DNA from: an uncultured Gammaproteobacteria bacterium
GTDB lineage: Bacteria > Patescibacteriota > Microgenomatia > Levybacterales > UBA12049
Direction of reading: 5' to 3'
Length of the DNA stretch: 64,000 bases
NCBI GenBank assembly: GCA_964474445.1
Contig: CAYYSJ010000002.1
Coordinates: 119,570 to 183,569 of the forward strand
Made by a program: the position numbers and the translations under genes. Below are positions 105 to 55,776 of the stretch, in pieces. Position 1 is the first letter of the stretch. Every line of letters begins with the position of its first letter. The notes under the pieces are model-generated. The model was not told the DNA's origin, ran no database searches, and saw nothing but the letters and a program-made list of their open reading frames with translations.

Positions 105-836
105 TTAAGATGGCTTTTCTAACCTTGCTTTGACAATAAGCCGTTTCCAAATTGTTCCTGGAGGAGTACATGTAATAAGAGTGATATAACTATCATCGTA
201 AGTTTGTGAAAGAACAGACGTATCTTCTGGTTCTACAACGGTCAAAGAAACTATTGAGTAGGTAAAGATAACACCATTGACCGTTGCGATAATTGTATCT
301 CCTGGTTGCAGCGTATGCACATTGGCAAAAATCGTTTTGTAGTCATTCGGATTAAAAAGTTGGGGAAGTGTTGAATGACCAAAAATGACCGTATTTCCTT
401 TGTCAGGAGGGACAGCTGTACCGGAAAGATTGACAAGATGTTTGGAGAGATCTGTATCAAAAGTTGAGACTTGCGCATTGACAATATGAAGCTTGGGAAT
501 AGAAAGGGTATAGGCAGTCTCACGTGGAGCTGTATGCGAGACAGTATAGGTAGGGTACCAATTAGCTGCGTTCGTAAAATCAATACCTGAGAGTGTCTGC
601 AAACTTGCATTTACAAGGCTTGCAATAGTGATATTTGTCACAACACTATGTTGTGGAATAGGGACTGTTACTTGTTGTTCAGCAAATGCTGGAGCGAGAG
701 TCAATTGCCATAAAATAAGAGGACTAAAGACATAGAAGACAGTACCTAAACCTCCTAAGAAAATAAAAAGTCCTACACATCGTAAGACAATCTTCATGTT
801 CACAAATGAGGGGTTTTTGTAGTAGTACTTATTCAT
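105..836 (-). CDS. Sortase-family transpeptidase (N-terminal TM; His in GHSTLPQ; TLITC catalytic Cys; downstream Arg)
   Basis: The translation carries the sortase signature TLxTC with upstream His and downstream Arg, plus an N-terminal hydrophobic anchor. Its ATG overlaps the stop of the upstream gene (ATGAATAA), which suggests translational coupling. Confidence 0.72.
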   Translation of the reverse strand: MNKYYYKNPSFVNMKIVLRCVGLFIFLGGLGTVFYVFSPLILWQLTLAPAFAEQQVTVPIPQHSVVTNITIASLVNASLQTLSGIDFTNAANWYPTYTVSHTAPRETAYTLSIPKLHIVNAQVSTFDTDLSKHLVNLSGTAVPPDKGNTVIFGHSTLPQLFNPNDYKTIFANVHTLQPGDTIIATVNGVIFTYSIVSLTVVEPEDTSVLSQTYDDSYITLITCTPPGTIWKRLIVKARLEKPS

Positions 837-3195
837 TGGCAGAAAGATTTATTGTAATATTTCTTGATAAGCGAGGAAGTATCTGTGGCAGGAAGAAAAG
901 ATTAGGTGAAAGCTTAAACGTTACTCCTGCAAATTGTGGTGTCCCTGATAGAATTTCTTTTGCTTGTGAGAATGATTTACCGGCGATCTGAGGTGCAATT
1001 GTTTTGGTATCAAGATTAGGAAGCAGTGATGCTTTCATATCAAGCGTTGCTTTTGCACTACCGTCTTTTTGCAGTAAGTCCTTGACGTCATATGTGATGC
1101 CTTGTGAAGCAAGACGCATATCAGCAGGAAACTGACCTTGCATAACTGATTTTGTGTAGGTATCAATATCAGATTTTTTATAAGAAAGACTTTGATATGA
1201 AACAGTCCCAGTGAGGTTAATACTCGTTGCTTGATCACTAACTTTTTTATCAAACGAGCTTTTTGTAATTGTTGTTTTTGTAAAACTTGGCAATATAACG
1301 ACGTCACTGGTTGCTTGCTGTTGCAAATCTTGTTTTGCTTTATCAGTAAGGCTATTGGTCAATTGACCAGATAAATTATCGAGATCTTTTTGTGCAACAA
1401 CAGTAATTGTTTTTTTAGTACCACCAGAAAAAGCATTGTCATTTTTTGCAGCAACTGTCGAACTTGTTCCAACGCTGAATTTTGTACCAGAAGGAAGATT
1501 ATATTCAGTTCCGATATCTGCAGCAGTAACAGGAACATCCTGTTTTCCAGGCTGTGTCCCAGAGAAGATATCTCCACTTGCTGATGCTATTGTCACATCT
1601 TTATCAAGAGTAAATTTGAGACTATTCGAAGAGGTGATTGTTGTTCCTGCAGATAATGTTTTAGCTGAGTCATTATTGTTAAAAATAGTGACTGTCCCTT
1701 TTGCTTTATCACCAATATCTTTACTTCCTGTTGCATTGCCAGATACTGTTCCGTCTTCTGTAACCCCAATATTTGTTGCTGCAATTGTTCCAGAAGTCGT
1801 ATCACTTGAACCAGAAGTTGAAAAGGTCACTGACTGATTTTGTTCGATGACTTTTGGTGTTAAAGAAAGGGTAGCAATTGCATGTATTCCAAAAATATAC
1901 CAAATAAAAAAAAGAACAAGAAGTATAAGAATACCTGGAATAACAAAGATTGCTTTATTGCCACCCGCTGGGATAGGAGAAGGCAGATGAGTAGGAAATG
2001 AAAGGGGATTTTTAGGGAGGCCTTTTTTGATATTTTCAAAAGTTTTTTTTGCGCCTTCCACAAATGCTGGACCGCTGACACTAAATCCCGGAGTGACATT
2101 TGTTTCTTCCTCTTCTTTCACTTTCTCCGGGATTTCTTCAAATGAGTCAGATGCATAATGAGAGATGTGGGGTGTATCTGTTTTTATAATATCTTCATCT
2201 TTGACAAAACCAAAGTATTCCTGACTTGAATCCTCTGCAATTTCTTTTGCATCTTCTTGCTGAAATAACTGGGAAGAGCGATGATCGTGGGGAGTTTCTT
2301 CTCTTTCACCCTCATGAGTCTTTTTAGGGAAGGGGAAAGTAATCTGAGTTTTTTCTTCTTCGTTTGTATCTTCTACAGTTTCTTCTAGATTTTCCATGGG
2401 CTTTGTACTTGGTGCTTCACGTTGTTTTACCAAATCAATTGCATCAAATCCCATTTGCGTTGCTGTCCCAAAAAGAATTGCTCTCGTATCAAAATCTGAC
2501 GCGAGTGTGGTGGCTTGGGGAACATGAAGAAATGGAAGAGATTTGCTCCAATGATGGCTTATGAATGCATGTTCTGCTTTTTGATCACCATTATCAAATA
2601 AGATAAGACGAGAAGGGAAGATTTCTACATTTTCAAATTGTTTGAGTGCTGCTTCAACTGTTTGAGTGAGACTTTCACCGAAAGGTATTTCTTTTGTGGC
2701 AATGATTCTTCCCGCTCGGATAAGAGTAAGTGATACCTGCCTTTTCCCTGCATCAACAAGAATACCGGAAACAGGTGCTCCTTCTTCTTTCTGTAATAAA
2801 TGAGCAATTGCTTCTGGAAAAACCAAAAACCCAATTGGTTGCAAGTCGAGTTCTTGGCTCATTTGCTTGAGTTTTCCTAAGTACTCTTTTGTAATATGCG
2901 AATCTACTACCCAACTTTCTTTTACCCCAAAAACTGTTTTGTGTGTTTGAACACCATCTGGTAATGATTGCTCTGCAATACTAATTGCTCGATCTGCTGC
3001 ACTGAGCAGATTCTCTGAAGAGACATGTTCAAGAGAAGCAGGTAATTCTGCTTTCCCTTGCCCTATAACCTGGATTCGTCCTCCTACCTCTTCAAAAACG
3101 ACGGCATGAACATGTTCGTCACGAAGAAGAAAAGCCAAAAAATATTCTGTTGGCGGAGCCTTTTTAAAGAGAGACCCTAGTATAGGTAGCTTCAT
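829..3195 (-). CDS. Large bitopic membrane protein: N-terminal degenerate actin-like ATPase fold (FtsA/PilM/MreB-like, ~250 aa), acidic disordered linker, one TM helix, ~370 aa Ser/Thr/Gly-rich extracellular domain
   Basis: The N-terminus aligns by eye to the beta1-beta2 and phosphate-2 regions of FtsA/PilM (HAVVFEEVGGRIQVIGQGK; ILVDAGKRQVSLTLIRAGRIIATKEIPFGES), but the DxGT motif is replaced (FLLRDEH). A hydrophobic segment AIFVIPGILILLVLFFIWYIFGI follows, then an S/T-rich C-terminus. Confidence 0.45.
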   Translation of the reverse strand: MKLPILGSLFKKAPPTEYFLAFLLRDEHVHAVVFEEVGGRIQVIGQGKAELPASLEHVSSENLLSAADRAISIAEQSLPDGVQTHKTVFGVKESWVVDSHITKEYLGKLKQMSQELDLQPIGFLVFPEAIAHLLQKEEGAPVSGILVDAGKRQVSLTLIRAGRIIATKEIPFGESLTQTVEAALKQFENVEIFPSRLILFDNGDQKAEHAFISHHWSKSLPFLHVPQATTLASDFDTRAILFGTATQMGFDAIDLVKQREAPSTKPMENLEETVEDTNEEEKTQITFPFPKKTHEGEREETPHDHRSSQLFQQEDAKEIAEDSSQEYFGFVKDEDIIKTDTPHISHYASDSFEEIPEKVKEEEETNVTPGFSVSGPAFVEGAKKTFENIKKGLPKNPLSFPTHLPSPIPAGGNKAIFVIPGILILLVLFFIWYIFGIHAIATLSLTPKVIEQNQSVTFSTSGSSDTTSGTIAATNIGVTEDGTVSGNATGSKDIGDKAKGTVTIFNNNDSAKTLSAGTTITSSNSLKFTLDKDVTIASASGDIFSGTQPGKQDVPVTAADIGTEYNLPSGTKFSVGTSSTVAAKNDNAFSGGTKKTITVVAQKDLDNLSGQLTNSLTDKAKQDLQQQATSDVVILPSFTKTTITKSSFDKKVSDQATSINLTGTVSYQSLSYKKSDIDTYTKSVMQGQFPADMRLASQGITYDVKDLLQKDGSAKATLDMKASLLPNLDTKTIAPQIAGKSFSQAKEILSGTPQFAGVTFKLSPNLFFLPQILPRLSRNITINLSANE

Positions 3196-3301: not shown

Positions 3302-5179
3302 TTAGCTAACCAATGCATACAATCTCATAAGGTTATTTCCAAGTTTTTCTTGTTTTGTAATCGTAAATGATTGTATAACACCGGTATGTGCAACATGAGG
3401 TCCTCCGCAAAATTCTTTAGAGTAGGCGTTATAGTCACCTTCTTTTCCAGATCCTCCTATAATATATACTTTTACCTGCTCTTGATATTTCTCGTCAAAA
3501 AGACCGATAGCGTTAATGTCTTTCGCTTTCTGAAGTGGCATCATTTCAAATCTTACTGGCAAATCTTCTGTAATTTTCTCATTGACTGTTCTCTCAAGAG
3601 AGACAAGTTCCTCATTAGTTAATTTTCTGTCAAAGTTAAAATCAAATCGAAGTCTTTCAGTTGTAATATTAGATCCTGATTGATGAACTTGTGTTCCGAG
3701 CAAATCCCTTATTGCCTGATGTAAAAGATGCGTTGCCGTATGACCTTTCACTGTCAGATCTTGCGTATCAGCTAGCCCGCCTTTGAATTTTCCAGCTGAT
3801 GCTGTCTTTGAAAGGTTTTGATGTTCCTTGATTTTCTCAGCCAATTCCTCCTGATTGAATGTATACCCAAGACTTTTCAACTGGGTTGGGGAGAGTCCAA
3901 AGGATGAGATTGCCTTGAAAGCTGTCTCAGGAGAAATTTCCACTACTCCCAGAAGTTCATCCCCCTCTCTAACTCCAGGCAATTTTTCAGGTGACAGGGC
4001 CTGTTTTTGTACATCTTTTTCAATAAGCTTTTTGGCATTAGAGAGCGTTTGTTGGTATTTTTGTTGTTCAGTAAGAAGAGTAAGCAGAATTGGTTCAAAG
4101 TTATCTGTAAGATAAGGATCAGTTTCTTTATATTCTGCAACAATTGCTTCTACAATAGTTTTTGTATCTGCATCTTTTGCAAGTTCCCATAAGTGATCAA
4201 GGCCACGTCTGATAAGCCTTCGCAAAATATATCCTTGTTCTTTATTTGAAGGTAAAATACCATTTGCTGCCATCATAATACTCCCAAGCAGATGATCTGT
4301 TACAACTCTCATGTGTTTTTCGTTCCCTTTATAGGATTTATTGGTTGCTTTTTCTATTACCGTAATGATTGGTTTAAAAAGAGAAGTATGAAAAACATCA
4401 ACCTGATCCTCTGCTGCTGCTAAAAGTCTTTCAAGGCCGCCACCAAAATCAACATTTCGTTGAGGGAGTTCTTTAAAGGTACCATCATCTTGTTTCTGAT
4501 ACTGCATAAAGACACTATTTCCAATTTCCATAAATCGTCCACAGTCACAATTCACATGACATGTCTCATCTTTCCATGGACTATTTTCGTGCAGTTGTAA
4601 ATCTGCCCCAAAATCATAGAAAACTTCACTGTCAGGTCCTCCTGGTTCGCCAGCTGGCATCTTGTCGGGAGTTCCAGAGCGAGACCACCAATTTTTCTCA
4701 ACGCCGTATTCAAAAATTCTTTCATCTGGATTGAGTTCTGCATCAGAAAAGAGTTTTTTCCAAATTGCAGTAGAAGTTTCATCTTCCGGTATTTGATCGT
4801 TTCCTTTAAAAACAGTGACATAGAGCCTTTGTGGATCAAGACGTAGTTCTTTTGTTAAAAATTCCCAAAACCAGGGAATCTGTTCTGTTTTAAAATAGTC
4901 TCCCAATGACCAGTTGCCAAGCATCCGGAAAAAAGTTGTATGTCTGTTGTCTCCAATTTCATCGATGTCTTGTGCCCTGAAACAATTCTGAACATTTACA
5001 AGTCTTTTTCCAGCAGGATGAGACTCTCCTAATAAATATGGTACTAAGGGCTGCATACCGGAAGAGGTAAAAAGGGTAGTTGGATCATTTTCTGGCACCA
5101 GAGGAGCATTGGCAATTCGTGTATGCCTTCTCTTTTCAAAATATGAAATATATAAATCAATAATTTCTCTAGCCGTCAT
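3302..5179 (-). CDS. alaS: Alanyl-tRNA synthetase (short form, no C-Ala domain)
   Basis: The protein carries class II AlaRS motifs (LVPENDPTTLFTSSGMQP; FRMLGNWSLGDYFK) and the editing-domain motif GGPHV...HTG. The ORF-track start at 5233 is probably over-extended. The ATG at 5179 (MTAREII) sits 7 nt downstream of a TTGCTATAAT -10 element. Confidence 0.85.
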   Translation of the reverse strand: MTAREIIDLYISYFEKRRHTRIANAPLVPENDPTTLFTSSGMQPLVPYLLGESHPAGKRLVNVQNCFRAQDIDEIGDNRHTTFFRMLGNWSLGDYFKTEQIPWFWEFLTKELRLDPQRLYVTVFKGNDQIPEDETSTAIWKKLFSDAELNPDERIFEYGVEKNWWSRSGTPDKMPAGEPGGPDSEVFYDFGADLQLHENSPWKDETCHVNCDCGRFMEIGNSVFMQYQKQDDGTFKELPQRNVDFGGGLERLLAAAEDQVDVFHTSLFKPIITVIEKATNKSYKGNEKHMRVVTDHLLGSIMMAANGILPSNKEQGYILRRLIRRGLDHLWELAKDADTKTIVEAIVAEYKETDPYLTDNFEPILLTLLTEQQKYQQTLSNAKKLIEKDVQKQALSPEKLPGVREGDELLGVVEISPETAFKAISSFGLSPTQLKSLGYTFNQEELAEKIKEHQNLSKTASAGKFKGGLADTQDLTVKGHTATHLLHQAIRDLLGTQVHQSGSNITTERLRFDFNFDRKLTNEELVSLERTVNEKITEDLPVRFEMMPLQKAKDINAIGLFDEKYQEQVKVYIIGGSGKEGDYNAYSKEFCGGPHVAHTGVIQSFTITKQEKLGNNLMRLYALVS

Positions 5180-5459: not shown

Positions 5460-8400
5460 TTGCCAAGAATGCCAAAGAATACCACGAACGACAACATTAG
5501 ACAAAACTGGGGACGAACATATTCCATCGTGCCTGAATTGGACCTTCTTTCTATTCAAAAAACATCATACCAATGGTTTAAAGAGCATGCAATTGGTGAA
5601 ATCCTTCAAGAAATCTCTCCTGTTGAGGATTTTACCGAAAAAAACTGGCAACTTACTTTTGGACATTATCGGATCGGTAAATCAACCTACAGTCCAGAAG
5701 AAGCAATGAATAAAGGAGTAACATTTGATGCCCCACTCTATGTAGAAGCAACCCTCTTAAACAAGAAAACCGGTGAAACCCAGACACAAGAAATTTTCTT
5801 AGGAGATATTCCTCAGATGACAGAGAGAGGAACATTTGTTGTAAATGGCATTGAGAGATCTGTTGTTAACCAGTTAGTGAGAAGCCCTGGTGTCTTCTTT
5901 ACTGCAACAGTAGATCCAGTTACCGGAAAACCTCTCTATACAGCAGAAGTGCGGCCTGTTCATGGAAGTTGGCTCGAATTTTCAACAACAAGGCACGGTA
6001 CCATTACCGTAAAAATTGATAGACGACGAAAATTCCCAGTGACTACCTTCCTTCGAGCGATCGGTATTTCTTCAAATGATGATATCCGGGATCGATTTAC
6101 AGGAATTACAGACAAAGAAGCATTTATTGATAACACACTTCAAAAAGATGAAACAGCTTCTGAAACAGAAGCTATGATTGAAATTTTTAAGAAGATGCAC
6201 CCAGGCGAACCTGTTGTGTTAGAAAAAGTCCGTGAATCACTTAACGGACTTTTCTTTAATAATAGAAGATATGATTTAGGTCCAGTTGGAAGATATAAGA
6301 TTAATAAGAAATTAGCAGACACTCAAAACTTTAGACCAGCTGAAGAAAGAGTATTGTCTGTTGATGATGTTGTTGGTACCATTGCATACCTTATTGGTCT
6401 TTCTCAAGGGAATGGTGTTGTTGATGACATTGATAGTCTTGCAAATAGAAGAATTCGATCTGTTGGAGAACTCGTTGCTTCCACTGCATTCAGAGTTGGA
6501 GTATTGCGACTTGAGCGAAGTATTAAAGAAAGAATGTCTCTGATGCAAACAGACGTTCCTTCAACAATTGCAAACCTTATTAATGCTCGACCTATTATGG
6601 CAGCACTCAACGAATTCTTCCGAACCTCCCAGCTTTCCACAATCCTTGACCAAACAAACCCATTAGCAGAAGTAGACAATCTGAACCGTCTTACCGTTAT
6701 GGGTACTGGTGGTATCTCACGAGAGCGCGCAGCCTTCTCTATCCGAGATATTAATGCATCCCAATACAGTAGAGTCTGTCCAATTAGAAGTCCTGAAGGT
6801 CCAAATATTGGTTTGGTTACCTATCTTTCCTTATATACAAGAGTAAATGGGTATGGCTTCTTGGAAGCACCATATAGAAAGGTTGAAGTCAAACAGGACG
6901 GAAAGAAATCTGTTGTGAGTGCATCTGAGGAAATTGTCTATCTTGATGCAGAAGATGAACAAAAGCACTATATTACTCATGCAGGTGCGTTAGACGAAAA
7001 TAATGAACTTACAACAGATCGAGTCCCTGCACGATTTAGAGGCGAGTTTATTGAAATTGAAAAGGAAAAAATTGAATATGTTGATGTAACCCCACAACAA
7101 GTTGTTGGATCTTCAGCAAGTCTTATTCCTTTTGTTGCTCATGATGAAGCTAACCGTGCGCTCATGGGTACTCACATGCAATGTCAAGCAGTGCCACTTG
7201 TAAAGCCAGATAGTCCAATTGTTGGAACAGGAATGGAAGGCAAAATTTCTGAAGTTATGGGACGAGTTGTCAAAGCTCCATTTGATGGGAAAATTACCCA
7301 TGCAGATGCACGAAGTATTGTTTTAGAAGGCAAGAATGAAAAGCAAACATTCATGCTTGAAACATTCCATCGAACAGCAGCAACAACAGCATACACACAG
7401 AAAACAGTAGTCAAAGCAGGTCAATTAGTTAAGAAAGGTGACATCCTTATTGATGGTCCAGCATCACAGAATGGAGAACTCGCTTTGGGTCAAAACCTTC
7501 TTATTGCATATGCATCATTTGAAGGTCTTGGATACGAAGATGCTATTGTTATCTCTGAAAGACTCGTCAAAGAAGATATCCTCTCCAGTATTCATATTGA
7601 GAAATATGAAGCATCAGTTGTTGAAACAAAACTTGGACCAGAAGAAACAACACGAGATATTCCAAATGTGTCAGAGGAAGATTTAGCAAATCTTGATGAA
7701 GATGGAATTGTTGTTATCGGATCAGAAGTCGGACCAGGTGATATTTTAGTTGGAAAGATTGCACCAAAAGGTGAAACAGAATTAACGGCGGAAGAAAGAC
7801 TTTTGAGAGCAATCTTTGGAGAACAAGCACGAGAAGTTCGCGATACCAGTTTGAGAATTCCACATGGTGAAAGAGGAACAGTAGTCAACGTTCAAATCCT
7901 TGACCGAAAGAAAGGTGACGAACTTGAACCAGGAACAATTCGAAAGATTGTTGTTGAAGTTGCTCAATTTAGACACGTTGTTGTTGGAGATAAGCTTGCA
8001 GGACGACATGGAAACAAAGGTGTTATTTCTCGAATTCTTCCAGCATCTGATATGCCATATCTGGAAGATGGAACACCAGTTGATATTGTTATTTCTCCAA
8101 TCTCAGTGCTTGCTCGTATGAACTTGGGGCAGTTACTCGAAGCACATCTTGGGTGGGCAGCACAAAAAATGAATATCAAAGTTGCAACTCCAGTCTTTGA
8201 AAAGATTGAAGAAAAACGAATTCGAGAACTATTGAAAGAAGCAGGTCTTCCAGAAGACGGAAAAGCAAAACTTTATGATGGAAGAACCGGTGAAGCATTC
8301 GAAAATCCAGTTGTTGTCGGTATTGAATATGTGATGAAACTTATTCACATGGTTGAGGACAAGGCACATGCTCGAAGTACTGGTCCATACTCTCTCGTTA

Positions 8401-13955: not shown

Positions 13956-13976
13956 TCCCCGAGAGGGGATTTTTTT
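13956..13976 (+). terminator. Intrinsic terminator (TCCCC-GAGA-GGGGA + TTTTTTT) ending the rpoBC-rpsLG unit about 300 nt after rpsG
   Basis: GC hairpin followed by a 7-T run. Confidence 0.6.
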
Positions 13977-14001
13977 ATGGCAAATTTTACTTCTTGTTGT
14001 T

Positions 14002-14011
14002 TTGCTATAAT
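14002..14011 (+). promoter_or_regulatory. Extended -10 TTGCTATAAT, 7 nt upstream of the CNNM gene ATG (leaderless)
   Basis: TTTTGCTATAATTTAATAT then ATG at 14019. Confidence 0.45.
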
Positions 14012-14018
14012 TTAATAT

Positions 14019-15068
14019 ATGGATCTGTTCTTTCAAGTTCTGTTAATAGTATGTTTTATCTTTCTCAATGGATTTTTTGTATTATCGGAATTTTCTTTAG
14101 TAAGTGTCAGACGTACGCGTATTGAAGAGTTAGCAAGAAGCGGGCATAGAGGTGCAAAACTTGTATTATCTGCTCTCAACGATCTCTCTACCTATATCTC
14201 TGCAACGCAATTTGGTATTACGCTAGTCTCATTGGCACTAGGTTGGTTGGGGGAACCTGCACTAGCACATGTATTTGCGATTATTCTGGAACCTCATATG
14301 CCCTTACGGATGCTCTTTATTTCTTCTCATGCTATTGCTATCGCTACGGCCTTTATTGTGATTACCTTTCTGCAAATTATTTTTGGAGAATTAGCTCCAA
14401 AGACGACAGCATTGCAAAAGTCGGAAAAACTAGTATTTCTTATTATTACACCTCTTATGGCTTTTACCACTCTTTTTAAACCGTTCATTTGGTTCCTGAG
14501 TGCCAGCTCGGGGTTTCTCCTCAGTATTTCTGGTATTGCAGAGGATAGTAAGAGGACAGTACATACAGAAGAGGAAATTAAGCTCATTCTTTCGCAAAGC
14601 GCAAAATCAGGGGAAATAGATCAACAAGAAGTGGATATTATTTATCGAGTATTTAAAATTGGTGATCTACCTATTTCAACAATAATGGTACCTAAAAAAG
14701 ATGTCATTGCTTTTGGTATTCATACTGGTATTCAGGAAATTGCAAAAGATATTACAGAAGAAAATCTCCATACGCGATTTCCTATTTATGAAAGAAATTT
14801 AGAAAATGTAAAAGGGTATGTGTCGGTTACTGATATGTATGTATTTGCAAAAACGCTTCATCAGGATAAAAAAGTGGGAGAGACAGACCTGATTCGAAAA
14901 ATCATGTCAATAAATGAAAACAAACGCATAGATAATGTTTTATCTCTTATGAAAAAAACAGGAGTTCATTTAGCCATTATTACCAATGCAAGTGGTAAAA
15001 TGGTAGGACTCGTTAGTATTGAGGATATTATTGAAAGTCTCGTCGGTGAGTTAGAAGAACAGGAATGA
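14019..15068 (+). CDS. CNNM/CorC/HlyC-family membrane protein (DUF21 TM domain + CBS pair + CorC-HlyC C-terminal)
   Basis: N-terminal 4-TM DUF21-like region, CBS-like repeats and a C-terminal transporter-associated domain (VSIEDIIESLVGELEE). Confidence 0.8.
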   Translation: MDLFFQVLLIVCFIFLNGFFVLSEFSLVSVRRTRIEELARSGHRGAKLVLSALNDLSTYISATQFGITLVSLALGWLGEPALAHVFAIILEPHMPLRMLFISSHAIAIATAFIVITFLQIIFGELAPKTTALQKSEKLVFLIITPLMAFTTLFKPFIWFLSASSGFLLSISGIAEDSKRTVHTEEEIKLILSQSAKSGEIDQQEVDIIYRVFKIGDLPISTIMVPKKDVIAFGIHTGIQEIAKDITEENLHTRFPIYERNLENVKGYVSVTDMYVFAKTLHQDKKVGETDLIRKIMSINENKRIDNVLSLMKKTGVHLAIITNASGKMVGLVSIEDIIESLVGELEEQE

Positions 15069-15823: not shown

Positions 15824-15999
15824 ACTGCTCTAGTAGAGATTTTAGCTTCAAATATTCTTGTTTGCAATGAGCATTTTTTTGGGAAATAGATCTTTTCTCT
15901 TAGTAGAAAGTATGGTACAATAATATTAAGTCAAAATTCAAAGGTCAAAAGCACAAAATTGTTTTTTGAATTTTGATTTTTTATTTTACATTAAACACT

Positions 16000-18129: not shown

Positions 18130-18990
18130 TTGTCAAATAACCAAGTACGTCTTTGTGTATTCATAGATTACACCTTCCTTGCCCTTTTGCTACAAATACC
18201 ATATAATCGCTCGATGAGAAATGTCGAGGCATGTTCTGAGCTCCGAAAACCTATTTGGGAGCAAAGAAGGGTTGTTGATAAAAAAGCATGGCAAACGGAA
18301 GGAAGCCAATTAGCCCTTTTCAACATGCTAGTTGGTGACTTTATTGCTTCTGGATGTTCTATTGGTGCTATTAATGACCTTATCCCATTAGGAGACTTTG
18401 TAGATAGAGCATTTTTACAAGCAAACTTACCTCTTCGGCAGGAAGAAAAATTAGTTGATCCAGTTGTGCATTCTTACCGTGTCGCCTTGCGTTTTGTTAA
18501 GGGGACACAACTTGATCCGAAAGTATTGCCAACCTATGCTGCGATAGCACTTCTCCATGATGTTGTGGAGGATACCCATACAGACCCTGAAGTTATAAAA
18601 AAAATATTTGGAGAGGAAATTGCACAAGGAGTTGTATTGCTCAGCAAGAAAGTAAATGGGGTAAAAATTTCAATAGAAAGGTACTATGAAGAGCTCCGTA
18701 ATGCAGACCCTGAAATTCGGTGGATTAAAGCTGCAGATAGAATCGAGAATTTATCTGTCTTTTTACGAATGAGTTATGTGCCAGAGCTCATAGATCCTAA
18801 TCAATTTAAACTTCCCAGTGGAAACAGCATCTTACAGGCCATGGCAGAAAACTTAATGGAGTCTCAACAACATGTTATGGAACTGGCAAAAGGTAATCCA
18901 TATTTGCAAAAAGAGCTTCAAGAAGTAATGCAACAAATAAAAGAAAGACTTATACAGCTTAAAGCTCAAAAAAAAGTATTTGATGCGTAG
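18130..18990 (+). CDS. HD-domain protein of the RelA/SpoT hydrolase type (small alarmone hydrolase-like); true start probably internal
   Basis: Metal-binding His (VVHSYRVA), ALLHDVVEDT and KAADRIENL motifs match the (p)ppGpp hydrolase HD domain. There is no synthetase domain. Confidence 0.55.
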   Translation: MSNNQVRLCVFIDYTFLALLLQIPYNRSMRNVEACSELRKPIWEQRRVVDKKAWQTEGSQLALFNMLVGDFIASGCSIGAINDLIPLGDFVDRAFLQANLPLRQEEKLVDPVVHSYRVALRFVKGTQLDPKVLPTYAAIALLHDVVEDTHTDPEVIKKIFGEEIAQGVVLLSKKVNGVKISIERYYEELRNADPEIRWIKAADRIENLSVFLRMSYVPELIDPNQFKLPSGNSILQAMAENLMESQQHVMELAKGNPYLQKELQEVMQQIKERLIQLKAQKKVFDA

Positions 18991-19119: not shown

Positions 19120-19143
19120 CCCGTCATGAAGACGGGTTTTTTT
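19120..19143 (+). terminator. Intrinsic terminator CCCGTC-ATGAA-GACGGG + TTTTTTT
   Basis: Perfect 6-bp GC stem plus a T-run. It overlaps the over-extended ORF-track start at 19126. Confidence 0.65.
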
Positions 19144-19149
19144 GTGGTT

Positions 19150-20736
19150 ATGAATAAAATTGCAATTATCGGAGGAGGTTTTAATGGATTATGCGTTGCT
19201 GCGCATATCATGCGTCTTGCAACTGAGCAGGGAAAGAAGGCATATATCACTGTTTTTGATGCAACAGGACTACGAAGCGGTAGAATATTCTCTCCTGAAT
19301 TACCTGATAATTTTACCCTCAACCATGAAACTGCAAATATGGGTTCTCTTCATCCTTTTTCATCCGTTGGGACTGACGACTTTTATAATTGGATTCAAGA
19401 AAAAAAAGATGAACCGCTGAAAAGTCTTAGTGGAACAACACTTGCAAAAAGATACAAGAAATGGGATCTTGATAATCCCTCTGGGTATCTTCCACGGAGT
19501 CTTTTTGGACATTATCTGGTGTACCGTCTCGACCAAATGAGCGGAAGTTCCCAAACCGATAATTATACCTTCTCGTATTTGTTAAAAAAAGTCGAGTCAG
19601 TAGTAAAAGTAGGGGGAAAATATAAAATTATCTGGGATGATAAAAAAGAATTGTTTGATACTGTTATTATCGCTACTGGTTTCTGGTACAACAGCAAGGA
19701 TAATACAGAAATAGTATATAAAGGGGAAGAGAAATGGCTCCCTAAGGCTTCAGATCCAATTGCTGTTATCGGTTCTTCATTATCTGCAATTGAGGTTTCA
19801 CTTGCCTTAGCAGATAAGGGTTATACAAATGTGACTATGTATAGTCGACACGGGAGGTTGCCTAAAGTACGTGGGAATACTCATCCATATATACCACGTT
19901 ATGTGACAACAACTGCTTTAGAGAAATTACAAAATAAATTTGGTTACGTAGAGTCTGTACTTCTTTTGCCTTTACTCAAGAAGGAATTTGATTATGCATA
20001 TTTTGTCAAAAGAGAGGGACTTTATCGGCGCGAAGGCATTCATTGGCAAGAGATATTACAGAATACAAACCCCCTCCGACAACTGGAAGAAGATATTAAA
20101 AAAGCAGAGAGTGGAGAAGAATTAGTATGGCGATCTGTTTTGACAAGTCTCTATGAATATGAAGGTGTCATCTGGCGTGGTCTTTCTGGATTTTCCCGCC
20201 ATAGCTTTTTGCAAAAGTACTCAAGTTTACTCTTGAGTTTTATAGCACCGATGCCACTGTTTCAAGCAAAAAGGCTGTTGAAGTATATGAGAAAAAAGAA
20301 AATAAAGCTTGTTGCCGGTGTCGATCATTATCAGGAGGAACATAGTAGATGGGTTATTCAAATAGGTGGGAAAAAGTATGTAAAAAGGTATTTAATAGAT
20401 GCTCGTGGTCCTGCAAAGCATGTAGGAACAAACGCATTTTTACGGTCGCTTATTGACCAACAGCTTTTAGAGAAAAATACAGCTGGAGGAATTTTCGTCA
20501 ATAGACAGCTACAAGTTGTTGTTAAAAATAAGGTTCAGCCTAATCTCTACGCCATAGGCCCCATAGTATATGGTGAACGCCCTCATAATAGCACTGTTTT
20601 TGCGACAGAGTATGCAGAGTTAGTTGCTTCTTATATTGTAAATAGTCTTGATTCATCAAAAGTACATGCTGTAACAGAGGCTGAAGCACCTTTTCTATCA
20701 AGTCACGTTGATTTTCTCCCAACGCTTTTCTCATAA
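19150..20736 (+). CDS. FAD/NAD(P)-binding protein of the YdhS-like family (NAD_binding_9-type Rossmann N-terminus)
   Basis: MNKIAIIGGGFNGLCVAAH dinucleotide-binding motif, a second GxGxxA (AVIGSSLSAIE) mid-protein, and a length (~530 aa) typical of YdhS-like proteins. Confidence 0.5.
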   Translation: MNKIAIIGGGFNGLCVAAHIMRLATEQGKKAYITVFDATGLRSGRIFSPELPDNFTLNHETANMGSLHPFSSVGTDDFYNWIQEKKDEPLKSLSGTTLAKRYKKWDLDNPSGYLPRSLFGHYLVYRLDQMSGSSQTDNYTFSYLLKKVESVVKVGGKYKIIWDDKKELFDTVIIATGFWYNSKDNTEIVYKGEEKWLPKASDPIAVIGSSLSAIEVSLALADKGYTNVTMYSRHGRLPKVRGNTHPYIPRYVTTTALEKLQNKFGYVESVLLLPLLKKEFDYAYFVKREGLYRREGIHWQEILQNTNPLRQLEEDIKKAESGEELVWRSVLTSLYEYEGVIWRGLSGFSRHSFLQKYSSLLLSFIAPMPLFQAKRLLKYMRKKKIKLVAGVDHYQEEHSRWVIQIGGKKYVKRYLIDARGPAKHVGTNAFLRSLIDQQLLEKNTAGGIFVNRQLQVVVKNKVQPNLYAIGPIVYGERPHNSTVFATEYAELVASYIVNSLDSSKVHAVTEAEAPFLSSHVDFLPTLFS

Positions 20737-22045: not shown

Positions 22046-22074
22046 TTGAGTAATAGTTTGTTTTCTCTTATACT
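22046..22074 (+). promoter_or_regulatory. Sigma70-like promoter (TTGAGT, 17 nt, TATACT) ending 9 nt before the aclB ATG; near-leaderless
   Basis: Hexamers at 22046-22051 and 22069-22074. Confidence 0.4.
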
Positions 22075-22083
22075 TAAACCACA

Positions 22084-23292
22084 ATGGCGCGAAGAAAACT
22101 TCCTGAATATACTGCAAAAAAGTTATTGTTTGAAAAATTAGACTTACCCTACCATGGAATTGCAATTGAAAGTTTAGATAAAGAAGAATTGCGAAAACTC
22201 GATGTATTGAATAAGACGAAGTCTTATGTAGTAAAAGTAGACCAGGGGATAAAAAAACGAGGGAAGCAAGGGCTTATTGGGGTGAATGTTAACCCGTATA
22301 AAATAAAAAAGTATCTACATGAATTTGCACAAAAAGGTTATTCCCGATTTTTGGTTGAAGACTTTGTTTTACATGAAAAGGTAGATGAAAAATATTTTGC
22401 TCTTGAGAGAACACGAGAAGGTATTACTGTCTATATGTCTCAATTTGGTGGTATTGATATAGAGGAACATCAGGACAAAGTAGAATCAAGAATAATACAT
22501 CCTGAACAGAATGATTATGAAGGAAAAATTACTGAAATTAGCACCTTCTTAGGCTTGGACAAGACGCTTCTTAAAGAGATTGTGAATTTCTTTGATGAAG
22601 CTTATGTCTCCTTTCTTGAAATAAATCCTTTCTTAATTCTTGATTCTAAGTTCGTAATGTTGGACCTTGCTGTGGAAGTTGATAGTGCAGGAGAGTTTTT
22701 TGTGAAAGGAGCGTGGAGTGCGAAAGATGTTGTCAGTAATACAGCAGGGAAAAAATTAACAGATGAAGAAAAGGCTGTTCAGCAACTCAAGGAGAATTCT
22801 CAAGCATCTCTTAAATTGGATGTCTTAAATCCTAATGGGGGTATTTTTACCATGCTTTCAGGTGGAGGGGCAAGTATTACTATTGCTGATGAAGTTTATA
22901 ATAGAGGATTTGCAAAAGAGTTGGCAAATTATGCAGATTATTCAGGAAATCCAAATCAAGAGGAGACATATCTCTATACAAAACAACTGTTACGTCTTTT
23001 ACACAAGTCAGAAGCCTCAAGGAAAGCTCTTGTTATTGCAGGAGGAGTTGCGAATTTTACCGACGTGAGGGTAACATTTAGAGGGATTCTTCAGGCACTT
23101 GCAGAAGATGTTTTAGCTTTGCAAAAGGAAGAAGTCAAAGTCTTTGTGAGGCGAGGTGGGCCGAATCAGATTGAAGGGCTTGCAATGATGAAAAATTTCC
23201 TTACTGAAAAGAATTTATACGGAGGAGTTTGGGACCAAACAATGGTTTTAACAGATGTTGTGAATAAAGCGATAGAGTATGTGAAACCATAG
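22084..23292 (+). CDS. aclB: ATP-citrate lyase small subunit (ATP-grasp / SucC-like; citryl-CoA synthetase beta)
   Basis: Collinear by eye with the N-terminal ~420 aa of eukaryotic ACLY and with Chlorobium AclB (VVKVDQGIKKRGKQGLIGVN, LEINPF, LNPNGGIFTMLSGGGAS, VRRGGPN). Confidence 0.8.
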   Translation: MARRKLPEYTAKKLLFEKLDLPYHGIAIESLDKEELRKLDVLNKTKSYVVKVDQGIKKRGKQGLIGVNVNPYKIKKYLHEFAQKGYSRFLVEDFVLHEKVDEKYFALERTREGITVYMSQFGGIDIEEHQDKVESRIIHPEQNDYEGKITEISTFLGLDKTLLKEIVNFFDEAYVSFLEINPFLILDSKFVMLDLAVEVDSAGEFFVKGAWSAKDVVSNTAGKKLTDEEKAVQQLKENSQASLKLDVLNPNGGIFTMLSGGGASITIADEVYNRGFAKELANYADYSGNPNQEETYLYTKQLLRLLHKSEASRKALVIAGGVANFTDVRVTFRGILQALAEDVLALQKEEVKVFVRRGGPNQIEGLAMMKNFLTEKNLYGGVWDQTMVLTDVVNKAIEYVKP

Positions 23293-23328
23293 TTCAATAC
23301 TACATAGCAAAATAATACATTAACCAGT

Positions 23329-25110
23329 ATGTTAAACATGCAGACACTACGACAAATTAAAGACTTTAACATCTTATTTTTGGGTTCTTATCCGTCTATT
23401 ATTCAATCTATTTTAGATTTTGATTATCTCTCAGGTAAAGAATATCCTTCCATTGTGGGAATTGTTGCAACCGGTCGTCGAACAGAACGTTATTTCTGGG
23501 GAGAGGGAGAAGTGATGCTTCCTGTTTTCCCAAGCGTTGATGCTGTACCCGAGGAAATAAAAAAAGAAGTGAATGCATTTTTTAACAATGCTTCGGGAAG
23601 GCGTGTTTTCTCAACAACGATAAATGCTCTGGATCTTTTTCCTCACCTTCAACTTGGAGTTATTTTTGCAGAAGAGACTCCGGAGAAACATGCTCTCGCC
23701 CTCTACAAAAAAGCAGAAGAAAGACAGGTCATGTTAGTCGGTCCAGCGAGTGTTGGCGTACTTCTCCCTCAAAAACTCAAGCTTGGTCCAATAGGCGGAG
23801 TGGATTTTCGACAAATGATAAGTTCTCAAATTCTCACGCCTGGGAATATTGCCGTTTTTTCTTCATCAGGAGGTATGACAAACGAGCTGATTAATATTGT
23901 CACATCAGCAGGTCACAGACTTTCTTTTGCCATGTCTTTTGGAGGAGATAGATTTCCTTTGATGACTCCTTTAGATGCACTGCTTGCGGTAGAAAAAGAC
24001 AAATCCACAGAATACATAGTCTATTTTGGAGAGTTGGGTGGGTATGATGAATATGATATCGCTGAGGCGCTGAAGACAAAAAAAGTAAACAAGAAAGTGA
24101 TTTGCTACATTGCAGGAACAGTATCAGAGATGTTTGAGACTCCTCCTCAGTTTGGTCATGCGAAGGCAATGGCTGGAAGAAGTGGTGAAGGAGCCTCTGC
24201 AAAAAGAAAAGCGTTACAGGAAGCAGGAGCAGTTGTTGCATCATCCTTTACTGATTTTGTTTCTATGGTAAGAAGTCTTCCACAAAAGCACTACAAGGAG
24301 ACCGAGTATGCTATGATAGGGAAGGTTATGGAAGAGAGACAAAAAGCACTCATTGCAACAACAATCAGTAGTGACAAGGATGGGAAAGTCATGGTGTTGG
24401 GCGAAGAGTTGTTGTCCTTTGCGAAGAATAATTCCTTTGCAAGAATTGTTGGAAGTTTGTTTTTAGGCAAAAAATTACGTTCTCGAGATACAGAACAATT
24501 CATTGATTTTGTTTTAAGACTATTAGTTGATCATGGCCCCTATGTTTCTGGTGCAGTCAATACCATTATTACTGCGCGAGCTGGAAAAGATTTAGTTTCG
24601 TCTCTTGCAACAGGCCTTTTGACAGTTGGTCCTCGCTTTGGTGGAGCAATTAATGAGGCAGCAGGAAATTGGTTAAGAGGTGCTACTAGGGGAGTCTCTG
24701 CTGAAGAATTTGTCGAACATTTTGCTTCTTCTAAAAAATTTATTGCAGGAATAGGTCACAAAAAATATCGAGTGGATTTCCCAGACCCTCGGGTAAAAGA
24801 AATTCTTCGATTTGCACCGGGGAAAAGAATGTTCACAAAATTTGCTTTGGAAGTTGAAAAAATCACAGTTGCTAAAAAAGGGAATCTTATCTTAAATGTT
24901 GATGGTGCAATTGCTGCTGTTTTACTTGATTTACTTTTAGAAAAGGAAGAATATACAGTGGAGGACTTGCAAAGACTTGTTGATATAGAATTCTTCAATG
25001 CCTTATTTGTACTGTCGCGCTCTGTTGGATTTATCTCTCATTTCTTGGATCAGAAGCGACTTGATGAAGGACTTTTCAGACTACCAGAAGATCAAGTTGC
25101 TGAAATATAA
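23329..25110 (+). CDS. aclA: ATP-citrate lyase large subunit (CoA-binding/SucD-like + citrate-synthase-like citryl-CoA lyase domain)
   Basis: VDHGPYVSGAVNTIITARAGKDLVSSLATGLLTVGPRFGGA and GIGHKKYRVDFPDPRV (the citrate-synthase His motif) are present. FVLSRSVGFISHFLDQKRL matches the ACLY C-terminus closely. Confidence 0.85.
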   Translation: MLNMQTLRQIKDFNILFLGSYPSIIQSILDFDYLSGKEYPSIVGIVATGRRTERYFWGEGEVMLPVFPSVDAVPEEIKKEVNAFFNNASGRRVFSTTINALDLFPHLQLGVIFAEETPEKHALALYKKAEERQVMLVGPASVGVLLPQKLKLGPIGGVDFRQMISSQILTPGNIAVFSSSGGMTNELINIVTSAGHRLSFAMSFGGDRFPLMTPLDALLAVEKDKSTEYIVYFGELGGYDEYDIAEALKTKKVNKKVICYIAGTVSEMFETPPQFGHAKAMAGRSGEGASAKRKALQEAGAVVASSFTDFVSMVRSLPQKHYKETEYAMIGKVMEERQKALIATTISSDKDGKVMVLGEELLSFAKNNSFARIVGSLFLGKKLRSRDTEQFIDFVLRLLVDHGPYVSGAVNTIITARAGKDLVSSLATGLLTVGPRFGGAINEAAGNWLRGATRGVSAEEFVEHFASSKKFIAGIGHKKYRVDFPDPRVKEILRFAPGKRMFTKFALEVEKITVAKKGNLILNVDGAIAAVLLDLLLEKEEYTVEDLQRLVDIEFFNALFVLSRSVGFISHFLDQKRLDEGLFRLPEDQVAEI

Positions 25111-25111
25111 A

Positions 25112-25954
25112 TTATTTAGGGGGTTGTTCGAGACGTCTTCTTGCTCTTTTGGTTAATGCACCCTGTTCTGATAGAACACGATGAACTGCAGCTTTACGCA
25201 TGGCATCTACTACTTGTCGCGAAGAAACTTGTTGTACGCTCATGACTTCAGGCCTTCGTGCATGGGCGATTGCGCTATCTACCTCATCTTGCAGTGGTTG
25301 TTGAACAACAACAGGTGGTTCCCCAGCTTTTCGGAAAACAAGTTCTTCAGACATTACTTTGATTTAATCAGAAAGGAGAGTTAGGAACAAGAGAAAGTTA
25401 TCTCAATGCTCGTGGATCTAGACGAATAACTCCTTCACTAATTTCTACTCCATTTAAAACTTCTTTTTTTGCATGCCTTTTATACCATCGTCGTGAGCGT
25501 ATTTTTGGTAAACCCACTGGGGGTTGTCTCCATACTGTACCCTCTTCAACTGTTTTTTGGGGCTCTGTTGGTGGATGTCTTCTTTTCCCCATAGTTTTGC
25601 GCATTATAGCAACTAAGATCTCGGTTGCCTTCTGGAAAATCGTGTGTCGTCAGTTGGTCCTACAGGTGGCTCCAAAATCCACACAGTGGGATTATTTGGA
25701 TCACCTAATGTTCGTTTTGCTTGTGCGAGTGTCTCTTCAACTTTTTCTGGAGTTTTTTTTGTTGAACGGGGTTTGGAAGGTCGTGAATGTGGTTTTGTTT
25801 CACCAAATGAAGCAGGAGGAATTATCCCGTAGGCTGTTTGAATAGCGCGAACCCCTCGACCATCATCTTCTCGTGAGCCTCCATTATTAGTAAGTCCTTT
25901 CCATTTGGAAGAAGGTTCTTTGTTCCCCACAATTACCATAATATCCATATACAC
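25112..25954 (-). other. Three collinear small basic ORFs (113, 68, 80 aa) in a locally GC-richer (~48-50%) patch; unknown function, possible gene remnant or foreign DNA
   Basis: The ORF-track entries 25613-25954, 25398-25604 and 25112-25354 all lie on the minus strand. They are R/K-rich (KRRHPPTEPQ...RSRRWYKRHAKK). I recognise no family for them. Confidence 0.25.
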
Positions 25955-26568: not shown

Positions 26569-26724
26569 ACATCCTTTAGGAAGAGATAAGGAAATCCCGT
26601 TTTGACAATATGCAGGATCAAAGCGGGATTTTATGTATACAGATAACATAATAGTGCTTTGAAAATAATCTTACGAAGAGAACCTCTTGCGAGAATACTT
26701 ATATGCTTGTTACAATTAACTCCT

Positions 26725-28728: not shown

Positions 28729-28852
28729 ATCATTTCACCCCCTTTCTATAAAAATAGTAAAAGTAAGATAGATAAAAGTAAAGTAGAAGATGAGAAGGGG
28801 GGTTTTAAGGCTACAAAAAATGCTTCTCGCATTCTCCTGCTATAATCATTCC

Positions 28853-30943: not shown

Positions 30944-30972
30944 TTGACGGGAAATAATAAATGTTGTATCAT
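30944..30972 (+). promoter_or_regulatory. Sigma70-like promoter for tuf (TTGACG, 17 nt, TATCAT)
   Basis: Hexamers at 30944-30949 and 30967-30972. The ORF-track start at 30941 lies inside this promoter and is an artefact. Confidence 0.55.
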
Positions 30973-31012
30973 GACAACAGACTCAATAAACGAGTCTTTC
31001 TTTTTTAAAACT

Positions 31013-32211: not shown

Positions 32212-32236
32212 GACCGCCGTAAGGCGGTTTTTTTGT
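32212..32236 (+). terminator. Intrinsic terminator after tuf (CCGCC-GTAA-GGCGG + TTTTTTT)
   Basis: GC stem plus a T-run 20 nt after the tuf stop. Confidence 0.7.
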
Positions 32237-32243
32237 ATTTTTT

Positions 32244-32252
32244 TGCTATAAT
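32244..32252 (+). promoter_or_regulatory. Extended -10 TGCTATAAT 9 nt upstream of the GTG start of the SET gene (leaderless)
   Basis: TTTTTTTGCTATAATTCTTATAGT then GTG at 32262. Confidence 0.45.
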
Positions 32253-32678: not shown

Positions 32679-32695
32679 TTTGTTATAATCCAAAC

Positions 32696-33717: not shown

Positions 33718-33776
33718 TAGCTTTACCCTAATTTTCTATTATTAGCATTTCTGCTTTTCTATCTGATAAGATACAT

Positions 33777-34450: not shown

Positions 34451-34479
34451 TTGCGGGATTTTAATGTATTTGATACAAT
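34451..34479 (+). promoter_or_regulatory. Promoter for the rplC operon (TTGCGG, 17 nt, extended TGATACAAT)
   Basis: Hexamers at 34451-34456 and 34474-34479. Confidence 0.4.
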
Positions 34480-34557
34480 ACCCATGTTTCGTCCAACATG
34501 ATCCGACTAACACAACGGATCGATTTTAAAAAGTAGCTTCAGCGTTAACCCAAGAGA

Positions 34558-34580
34558 GGTGGCCTGAGGGCCGCTTTTTT
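34558..34580 (+). terminator. Terminator-like hairpin (GGTGGCC-TGAG-GGCCGCT + TTTTTT) 14 nt upstream of the rplC ATG; candidate L4-responsive attenuator of the leader
   Basis: A 7-bp stem plus a T-run located inside the 5' leader of rplC. Confidence 0.5.
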
Positions 34581-34594
34581 GTTGGAAAAGTCAT

Positions 34595-49136: not shown

Positions 49137-49216
49137 GCATAATAGAATGCTTGTGAAGCAAGCAAATTTGCGTGTTGAATATTATTCGAAGAAATGGTAA
49201 AATACCTATTACTATT

Positions 49217-53682: not shown

Positions 53683-53789
53683 TCATATCCAATGTGGAGG
53701 ATAGCAATTATAGTAAAAACTCTCTGTTACTCCCTACGTTTAATTTTCTCTATTGCTAAGATTATAAGGTATGTTATAATAGTCAAGTT

Positions 53790-55767: not shown

Positions 55768-55776
55768 TGCTATTAT
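55768..55776 (+). promoter_or_regulatory. Extended -10 variant TTGCTATTAT 11 nt upstream of the recA ATG
   Basis: GAATTGCTATTATAGGTATATATT then ATG at 55788. Confidence 0.35.

Follow-up and report, generated by a model that had tools for sequence, protein, structure and literature searches.

Extended −10 promoter boxes abutting start codons suggest leaderless or near-leaderless mRNAs in a Levyibacteria-like genome of the Patescibacteria

The boxes and the genes that they precede

The stretch of DNA described here (the window, 64 kb of contig CAYYSJ010000002.1, assembly GCA_964474445.1) belongs to an A+T-rich genome (38% G+C) of a Levyibacteria-like member of the Microgenomates, which are part of the Patescibacteria or Candidate Phyla Radiation (CPR). 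The feature of interest is a short promoter-like element, the extended −10 box, which lies a few nucleotides upstream of the start codons of many genes in the window. One example stands before a transporter gene with CNNM and CBS domains (14019-15068, forward strand, 349 aa, identified with Pfam), whose start is shared by public gene calls. At this site TTTTGCTATAAT occupies positions 14000-14011 and is followed by TTAATAT and by the ATG at 14019.

The initial annotation had reported the same 10-mer, TTGCTATAAT, before alaS, the CNNM gene and a SET-domain gene, a one-mismatch variant before recA (ATG 55788), and a TATACT hexamer 9 nt before the ATG of aclB with a −35 hexamer (TTGAGT) at a distance of 17 nt. 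All of these positions were confirmed, with the alaS copy at 5196-5187 (−) and the SET copy at 32243-32252 (+). Pfam bears out the gene identities, namely alaS, CNNM with CBS, SET, RecA, aclB and aclA, L4, L23, and HU. The listed sites therefore stand as described, but the count was too low. A fourth exact copy at 25612-25603 (−), 10 nt upstream of the ATG of a putative 64-codon open reading frame (ORF), had been missed, and about 16 genes rather than five carry the element.

The boxes listed below were collected by a scan for −10-like hexamers 4-12 nt before starts opening long ORFs, to which every TGnTAnAAT box was added. Sixteen window genes have a good box (of the TGnTAtAAT or TATAAT type) 6-11 nt before the start, and four more (fusA, aclA, a histidine phosphatase gene, and rpoA) have a weaker or more distant one.

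14003-14011 (+): CNNM/CBS transporter box TGCTATAAT, 7 nt to ATG 14019
5195-5187 (−): alaS box TGCTATAAT, 7 nt to ATG 5179
32244-32252 (+): SET-domain gene box TGCTATAAT, 9 nt to GTG 32262
25611-25603 (−): small-ORF box TGCTATAAT, 10 nt to ATG 25592 of a putative basic 64-codon ORF (25592-25398)
55768-55776 (+): recA box TGCTATTAT (TGcTATTAT; longer form TTGCTATTAT), 11 nt to ATG 55788, with TTGTAT at −35
22046-22074 (+): aclB promoter, TTGAGT, 17 nt, TATACT without TG (hexamer 22069-22074), 9 nt to ATG 22084
22039-22031 (−): HIT-family gene box TGATATAAT, 7 nt to ATG 22023
18202-18207 (+): HD-domain gene box TATAAT without TG, 6 nt to ATG 18214
26708-26716 (+): holin-family gene box TGTTACAAT (TGtTACAAT), 8 nt to ATG 26725
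28838-28846 (+): GH18 gene box TGCTATAAT, 6 nt to ATG 28853
32681-32689 (+): HAD hydrolase gene box TGTTATAAT, 6 nt to ATG 32696
53772-53780 (+): SurA-like gene box TGTTATAAT, 9 nt to ATG 53790
55228-55220 (−): metallo-beta-lactamase-fold (MBL) gene box TGATATACT (TGaTATACT), 6 nt to ATG 55213
52488-52480 (−): PNPOx-like gene box TGATATAAT, within the 3′ end of the upstream gene, 6 nt to ATG 52473
30847-30842 (−): S-adenosylmethionine (SAM) methyltransferase gene box TATAAT without TG, 11 nt to ATG 30830
63972-63980 (+): window-end gene box TGCTATAAT, 6 nt to ATG 63987; the gene continues past the window
33764-33772 (+): histidine phosphatase gene, weaker box TGATAAGAT (TAAGAT hexamer), 7 nt to ATG 33780; the gene lies between rpsJ and rplC
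15987-15992 (+): fusA weak box TACATT, 7 nt to ATG 16000
15913-15921 (+): fusA alternative promoter TGGTACAAT
23316-23321 (+): aclA weak box TACATT, 7 nt to ATG 23329, no Shine-Dalgarno sequence
49195-49203 (+): rpoA box TGGTAAAAT, 13 nt to ATG 49217, probably an internal promoter, with an expected leader of about 6 nt

The HIT and aclB promoters stand back to back in an intergenic region of 60 bp.

The four exact copies of TTGCTATAAT all lie 7-10 nt upstream of a start codon. Only 0.34 copies are expected in the window, and none of 100 dinucleotide-preserving shuffles reaches four. The position of the boxes is equally constrained. Eight of the 13 TGnTATAAT boxes in the window are followed at 6-11 nt by the ATG of an ORF of at least 60 codons, as compared to an expectation of 0.26 (Poisson P 5e-10), and the same is true for 10 of the 52 TATAAT boxes, with 1.06 expected (Poisson P 2e-7). 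Five control offset windows gave counts of 0-2 in the same test. The distance between box and start, which the initial annotation had proposed to check, shows a sharp peak at 6-8 nt in the window, and 1.4 Mb of DNA from related genomes gives the same peak.

Promoter identity and position in transcription units

When 19 window boxes are aligned on the hexamer, T is found at −15 in 18 and G at −14 in 14, and a T-rich stretch lies upstream. Indeed, the 11-mer noticed at first is the commonest spelling of the classical extended −10 promoter, TGnTATAAT. Most of the aligned boxes are without a −35 element (no hexamer matching 4/6 positions at 16-18 nt); such a hexamer is present for aclB, recA, and the methionine leader described below. 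In the window and related loci taken together, TG stands before 31% of the −10-like hexamers that adjoin an ATG and before 5.9% of the remaining ones, an approximately fivefold enrichment.

The CNNM box lies directly 3′ of the intrinsic terminator of the rpsG unit (13956-13969 plus T-run), and the SET box directly 3′ of the tuf intrinsic terminator (32212-32229 plus T-run). The relation to operon position was examined with starts called blind to the motif, each long ORF being taken to begin at its first ATG. On this basis, 11 of the 36 operon-head genes and none of the 27 internal genes have a −10-like hexamer 5-12 nt upstream, whereas Shine-Dalgarno 4-mers precede 8% of the head genes and 41% of the internal genes. 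In distant loci, 49 of 264 boxes are also found before closely spaced genes. The initial annotation had stated that the motif-bearing genes are devoid of Shine-Dalgarno sequences and that ribosomal-protein genes have them. Both statements are borne out, as no Shine-Dalgarno is present in the 6-11 nt spacers between window boxes and starts, and AGGAGG-type sequences precede rplD (35470), rplW (36223), and hup (59326).

Because terminators lie directly upstream, because the boxes are restricted to operon heads, and because TG is enriched, the extended −10 element is, on the evidence of its sequence and placement, a sigma-70-type promoter and not a ribosome-binding motif.

Conservation in related genomes

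The closest homologues of AlaS (60-76% identity) are found in metagenome-assembled genomes labelled Candidatus Levyibacteriota or Patescibacteria group, and the next ones (45-50% identity) in Daviesbacteria, Woesebacteria, and other Microgenomates. An origin in Chlamydiae, Chlorobi, or Aquificae, which the aclBA pair and the SET gene might suggest, is rejected on these matches. Of 69 alaS orthologue loci, 44 have a −10 hexamer (one mismatch allowed) that ends 5-12 nt upstream of the start, as compared to 4 at the control offset. In these 44 loci the box stands at 6-7 nt in 28 and carries TG in 31, and a secondary group is found at 10 nt (9/44). The sequence flanking the boxes is otherwise unalignable among loci. 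Since the box is kept while its flanks diverge, selection appears to hold the arrangement and not the sequence as such.

When 30 window proteins were compared with the alaS loci by tblastn, matches were obtained for alaS, rpoB, the sortase gene, and the baseplate-J-like gene only. The synteny of these loci stops short of the CNNM gene, and they are therefore no test for the other sites. A metagenome scan with CNNM yielded four loci. The arrangement is kept in two of three relatives, both with homologues of 46% identity and with TGgTATAAT 10 nt before the ATG. The SurA-like gene has a box 6 nt before its ATG in two of two relatives, and recA is preceded by TTGTAt, 16-17 nt, TGnTAnnAT, and 11-14 nt to the ATG in five of five.

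In a syntenic relative (L097), a box lies 6 nt before the start of the SET gene (TGaTATACT, then GTG), the HAD gene (TGcTATAAT, then ATG), the methyltransferase gene (TATAAT, then ATG), and the histidine phosphatase gene (TGcTATAAT, then ATG, after a terminator). An adjoining box is also seen at its GNAT gene. More broadly, box-to-ATG distances peak at 6-8 nt both in Levyibacteria-like loci (0.51 Mb) and in Patescibacteria loci (1.38 Mb). The peak is clearest in Microgenomates and weak in small samples of Parcubacteria-type and Saccharibacteria sequences.

Start codons

The starts adjoining the boxes agree with the proteins that they open. The first residue matched by Pfam lies between 1 and 9 in the products of alaS (tRNA-synt_2c, from residue 5), CNNM (residue 9), HAD and MBL (both residue 2), PNPOx, and holin, for which residues 1-105 align to profile positions 1-105. 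The GH18 product has a signal-anchor-like N-terminus, MKKLLFGILVIVLL. In most loci, the AlaS tblastn alignments begin at residue 1. The N-terminal MA(K/R) of RecA is conserved in most of 120 homologues, and the internal Met is Leu in many of them. As for the SET protein, the offset of 20 residues before GRGVFA is kept in 32 of 60 homologues and lies within 2 residues in most.

Four ORF starts called upstream of these positions had been dismissed as artefacts by the initial annotation. Pfam coordinates and sequence give the later starts in each case, at 5179 and not 5233 for alaS, 31013 and not 30941 for tuf, 16000 and not 15973 for fusA, and about 49217 and not 49172 for rpoA.

A further start, at an FAD/NAD-binding gene, probably also needs revision. 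Its longest ORF (ATG 19126, +) crosses an intrinsic terminator, CCCGTC-ATGAA-GACGGG plus T-run (19120-19150). Translation probably begins at ATG 19150 (MNKIAIIG...) instead, a codon with no −10 box next to it and no Shine-Dalgarno.

A candidate methionine leader-peptide attenuator

A candidate attenuator is found upstream of a homocysteine S-methyltransferase gene (53530-52508, −, ATG 53530). Its parts, all on the reverse strand, are the following.

53682-53537 (−): whole candidate attenuator
53682-53677 (−): −35 hexamer TTGACA, 17 nt to the −10
53659-53654 (−): −10 hexamer TATACT, 10 nt to the leader ORF
53643-53581 (−): leader ORF of 20 codons, MIHEQIMMTMMMSSLRGSSL and stop, no Shine-Dalgarno
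53597-53586 and 53565-53554 (−): antiterminator arms
53557-53537 (−): terminator, ending 6 nt before the gene

Eleven of the 12 positions of GGGGAAGTTCGT, the 3′ end of the leader ORF, are complementary to ACGAACCTCCCC, and the latter overlaps the terminator's 5′ arm. In the predicted minimum free energy fold, a 1:2 hairpin stands together with the 3:4 terminator, which is the classical attenuator state (z = −2.8). The same layout is present in two relatives in which the gene heads its operon (L092 and L094), with the leader peptides MNKLSAKMMAMMMTPLRGNSL and MTHEPIAREAMMQMMPQPSPRGLLSA, each closed by a stop. The second of them (L094) has entirely different hairpin sequences. The peptides carry Met runs in all three genomes, MMTMMM in the window and MMAMMM and MMQMM in the two relatives. 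In three relatives where the gene is not at the operon head or lies in another context, the layout is absent.

In the three genomes, the leader ORF is without a Shine-Dalgarno and begins 8-10 nt after the −10 of a promoter made of TTGACA, 15-18 nt, and a −10 hexamer. Such an attenuator works only if the leader ORF is translated. An ORF without Shine-Dalgarno beside a −10 box therefore lends indirect support to translation of the leaderless type.

Two kinds of known attenuator are comparable, the polycysteine leaderless short ORFs of mycobacteria (cysteine-responsive attenuators, bioRxiv 10.1101/834739) and the classical trp, his, and leu leader-peptide attenuators. The points of resemblance are a 5′ short ORF rich in the codons of one amino acid, without a Shine-Dalgarno and beside a −10 box, a place upstream of a gene making that amino acid, and alternative 1:2, 2:3, and 3:4 hairpins with an intrinsic terminator. 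Unlike these systems, the methionine leader has methionine as the putative sensed amino acid, a CPR host, and no Rfam family at threshold. Rfam at gathering thresholds found only tRNA-Pro in the whole window, and an E-value search with the leader gave insignificant matches only (Trp_leader at E 0.99). No report of a methionine leader-peptide attenuator was found in the literature searched.

Leaderless or near-leaderless transcripts

Transcription by RNA polymerase ordinarily begins some 7 nt downstream of the −10 hexamer. A spacing of 6-8 nt therefore places the usual start on the A of the ATG, and one of 9-13 nt implies a leader of about 2-7 nt. It is considered probable (roughly 80%) that the boxes are promoters giving leaderless mRNAs or mRNAs with leaders of 5 nt or less. 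In the proposed mechanism, a sigma-70-type RNA polymerase would recognize the extended −10 (T−15 G−14 n TATAAT), mostly without a usable −35, and would begin transcription on the AUG or a few bases before it. The resulting transcripts would have no 5′ untranslated region (UTR) at spacings of 6-8 nt and a 5′ UTR of about 2-5 nt at 9-11 nt, and no Shine-Dalgarno in either case. On the leaderless route, the ribosome together with initiator tRNA would bind the 5′-terminal AUG directly. Operon-internal genes, especially those for ribosomal proteins, use AGGAGG-type Shine-Dalgarno sequences. Leaderless precedents are lambda cI, mycobacteria, and Deinococcus. Where transcription starts and how the ribosome is recruited are both proposed here by analogy with known leaderless systems (PMC6028130, PMC3160421, PMC12340547).

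This mode does not account for all transcription units. Three genes, tuf, rpsJ, and rpsL, appear to make up a third class with ordinary promoters, leaders of 30-55 nt, and no Shine-Dalgarno. The tuf promoter reads TTGACG, 17 nt, TATCAT, with a leader of about 35 nt. That of rpsJ reads TAGACA, 17 nt, TGaTATAAT, with 31 nt between box and ATG, and for rpsL this distance is 54 nt. In L097, tuf and rpsJ are likewise leadered and without Shine-Dalgarno. The coexistence of two initiation modes in the window had been proposed by the initial annotation; coexistence with Shine-Dalgarno initiation holds, but the number of modes is better given as three.

Two leaders deserve mention in their own right. 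The promoter and leader of tuf, presumably a highly expressed gene, occupy 30944-31012 (+; about 1400-1470 in L097), and the leader is conserved and contains a hairpin, AGACTC-N7-GAGTCT, followed by a T-run. At 34471-34594 (+), about 115 nt of leader lie downstream of a TGATACAAT box and end in a hairpin and T-run (GGCCTGAGGGCC TTTTTT) just before rplC, a gene with neither a Shine-Dalgarno nor an adjacent box. This hairpin may serve as an attenuator for the rplC-rplD operon, and L097 has a comparable hairpin upstream of rplC (about 6240-6311).

Weighing of alternative explanations

Two observations would fit an accidental pairing of TATAAT-like words with ATG, as may arise in intergenic DNA rich in A+T: one-mismatch matches to the 10-mer are only about twice as frequent as expected (17 vs 8.1), and a generic −35/−10 two-hexamer scan of the window is not enriched (54 vs 57 in shuffles), although such a scan misses extended −10 promoters without a −35 and so tells neither way. 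The probability of chance is nonetheless negligible, and this explanation is already refuted by the excess of exact copies, by the positional peak with its empty control offsets, and by an arrangement kept across dozens of genomes, above all at alaS. A different possibility is that the A/T-rich element is a non-Shine-Dalgarno translation signal (an A/U-rich enhancer or alternative ribosome-binding motif in the style of GeneMarkS-2 group B) on mRNAs that start farther upstream. The base composition of the genome is compatible with it, and tuf, rpsJ, rpsL, and aclA, when counted as leadered genes without Shine-Dalgarno, imply that some non-Shine-Dalgarno mechanism exists. However, these leadered genes have no motif beside their ATG, and the motif is the exact sigma-70 extended −10 consensus including TG at −15/−14. 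It stands directly after terminators with no other promoter available, and it is absent before all 27 internal genes, whereas group B motifs also precede internal genes (PMC6028130). A translation signal is for these reasons improbable. Still less probable is an ordinary leadered mRNA translated from a codon downstream of the adjoining ATG or GTG. Some recA relatives (344-346 aa) are indeed annotated at NCBI with a start about 22 codons downstream, and the small ORF at 25592 is only putative. Against this stand the Pfam domains of six genes, all of which begin 1-9 residues into the proposed product, the AlaS alignments from residue 1, the conserved N-terminus of RecA and its variable internal Met, and the conserved SET offset; moreover, no downstream candidate is preceded by a Shine-Dalgarno.

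The most serious alternative accepts the boxes as promoters but holds that most transcripts have a leader of 2-7 nt and that initiation may differ from strict initiation at a 5′-terminal AUG. It is given a little less than even odds, and it refines the preferred explanation, mainly for genes with spacings of 9-13 nt, more than it opposes it. Such spacings, which imply a leader that is short but not zero, occur in the window at 9 nt (SET, aclB, SurA-like gene), 10 nt (small ORF, methionine leader ORF), 11 nt (recA, methyltransferase), and 13 nt (rpoA), and in relatives at CNNM (10 nt), in the secondary group of alaS, and at recA in all five genomes. For recA, the spacing of 11-14 nt in every relative examined makes a very short leader more likely than none. 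Conversely, the dominant peak at 6-7 nt puts the usual start on the A of the ATG, and one and the same gene can differ from relative to relative in its spacing, over a range of 6-11 nt (9 vs 6 for SET, 11 vs 6 for the methyltransferase, 9 vs 6 for the SurA-like gene), which suggests that the two spacing classes are functionally interchangeable. Mycobacterial studies, moreover, count leaders of 0-5 nt as leaderless. Several points besides these longer spacings weigh against the leaderless explanation. The boxes before fusA and aclA (TACATT) and before the histidine phosphatase gene (TAAGAT) are weak, and the small ORF at ATG 25592 has neither a Pfam match nor a homologue in the related loci examined. 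GTG, the start codon of the SET gene, is a poor leaderless start in E. coli. Only about 30% of head genes score with motif-blind starts, which makes this one mode among several, and the leadered tuf, rpsJ, and rpsL speak against it as the sole mode. The leaderless signature claimed by the initial annotation is in the end upheld in silico by the spacing peak, the operon heads, and the conservation, and it needs correction where boxes at 9-13 nt imply short leaders, above all at recA.

Relation to known systems

The leaderless genes of GeneMarkS-2 group C are first-in-operon genes whose start lies 6-8 nt from a Pribnow box (PMC6028130). The same leaderless architecture was described by Zheng et al. 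in 2011, with a TG peak noted in low-GC genomes (PMC3160421), and also for Deinococcus-Thermus (PMC12340547). To group C belong Actinobacteria (for instance Mycobacterium and Streptomyces) and Deinococcus-Thermus (PMC6028130, PMC3160421, PMC12340547, PMC3898074), and the window resembles it in the Pribnow box 6-8 nt before head-gene starts, in the absence of Shine-Dalgarno sequences at head genes and their retention at internal genes, and in the share of transcription units affected, roughly a quarter to a half. The window differs from group C in its host, a Levyibacteria-like member of the Microgenomates within the Patescibacteria/CPR, where the mode is predicted from sequence. Furthermore, the high-GC phyla of group C have a degenerate TAnnnT, whereas this A+T-rich genome carries the full TGnTATAAT.

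With the extended −10 promoters of E. coli and Gram-positive bacteria, the boxes share TG at −15/−14 before TATAAT and a weak or absent −35. There a 5′ UTR with a Shine-Dalgarno is normal, whereas here the box abuts the start codon. Group B (the Bacteroidota-type non-Shine-Dalgarno group) also has an A/T-rich motif near starts without Shine-Dalgarno, but its motifs occur before internal genes as well and are not promoter-like, in contrast to the promoter-like motif of the window, which is found at operon heads only.

As for the CPR, the nearest report is that some Parcubacteria are without the anti-Shine-Dalgarno motif (PMC9297842). PMC12641261 cites a set of transcription start sites for the CPR bacterium Nanosynbacter lyticus TM7x (PMID 35975994). 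No description of a leaderless mode in Patescibacteria/CPR was found in the full-text literature searched. The mechanism itself is known, and what is notable is the lineage, the comparative signal, and the attached attenuator.

Neighbouring genes

Several other features of the window can be recorded. The alanyl-tRNA synthetase encoded by alaS (3302-5179, −) has 625 aa, and Pfam recognizes only the catalytic and second additional domains. A typical bacterial alanyl-tRNA synthetase has about 870 aa, and the enzyme is short in all 80 related loci. It is followed by a gene for a 788-aa protein with a weak Baseplate_J-like domain (829-3195, −) and by an overlapping sortase gene (105-836, −), and this pair is conserved beside alaS in many related loci.

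ATP-citrate lyase is encoded by aclB and aclA (22084-25110, +; Pfam Citrate_bind, Citrate_synth_N, Ligase_CoA, and Citrate_synt). Its presence in a Levyibacteria-like genome of the CPR is unexpected for a lineage of minimal metabolism. Three tandem putative small ORFs of 113, 64, and 80 codons occupy 25112-25954 (−), the middle one after the exact TTGCTATAAT box; none of the three has a Pfam match or a homologue in the related loci examined.

The S10 ribosomal-protein cluster is interrupted between rpsJ and rplC by a His_Phos_1 gene with its own promoter (33780-34430, +), and the same insertion is present in L097 (5116-5763). An assignment of the ORF at 33780 as GIY-YIG-like was rejected, as Pfam identifies it as a histidine phosphatase.

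Significance for the biology of the CPR

The CPR or Patescibacteria are a huge and mostly uncultured group with stripped-down ribosomes, and to our knowledge almost nothing is known of their transcription and translation initiation. The broader proposal is that leaderless or near-leaderless mRNAs are a major and ancestral mode in Microgenomates, and perhaps in Patescibacteria/CPR at large, serving about one third to one half of transcription units and used even for regulation via a Met leader peptide. It is held here with slightly better than even confidence. If it is true, a large, deep-branching phylum with reduced ribosomes would join the few bacterial lineages in which leaderless genes abound, and many gene starts, intergenic small ORFs, and attenuators of the CPR would be mis-annotated or missed. 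In this regard, the leaderless signature offers a concrete rule for calling gene starts in the CPR, and in the window it bears on four over-long ORFs and one conflict over the recA start. Abutting boxes also explain why 60 bp between the HIT-family gene and aclB are enough for two divergent promoters together with the two start codons.

The methionine attenuator is a candidate for a new attenuator class, which would show the leaderless-type mode in use for regulation. The boxes with their adjoining start codons may furthermore provide ready promoter/start modules for the first CPR genetic systems. Finally, the finding is relevant to whether leaderless initiation is an ancestral trait and follows Terrabacteria-like lineages, among them Actinobacteria and Deinococcus-Thermus.

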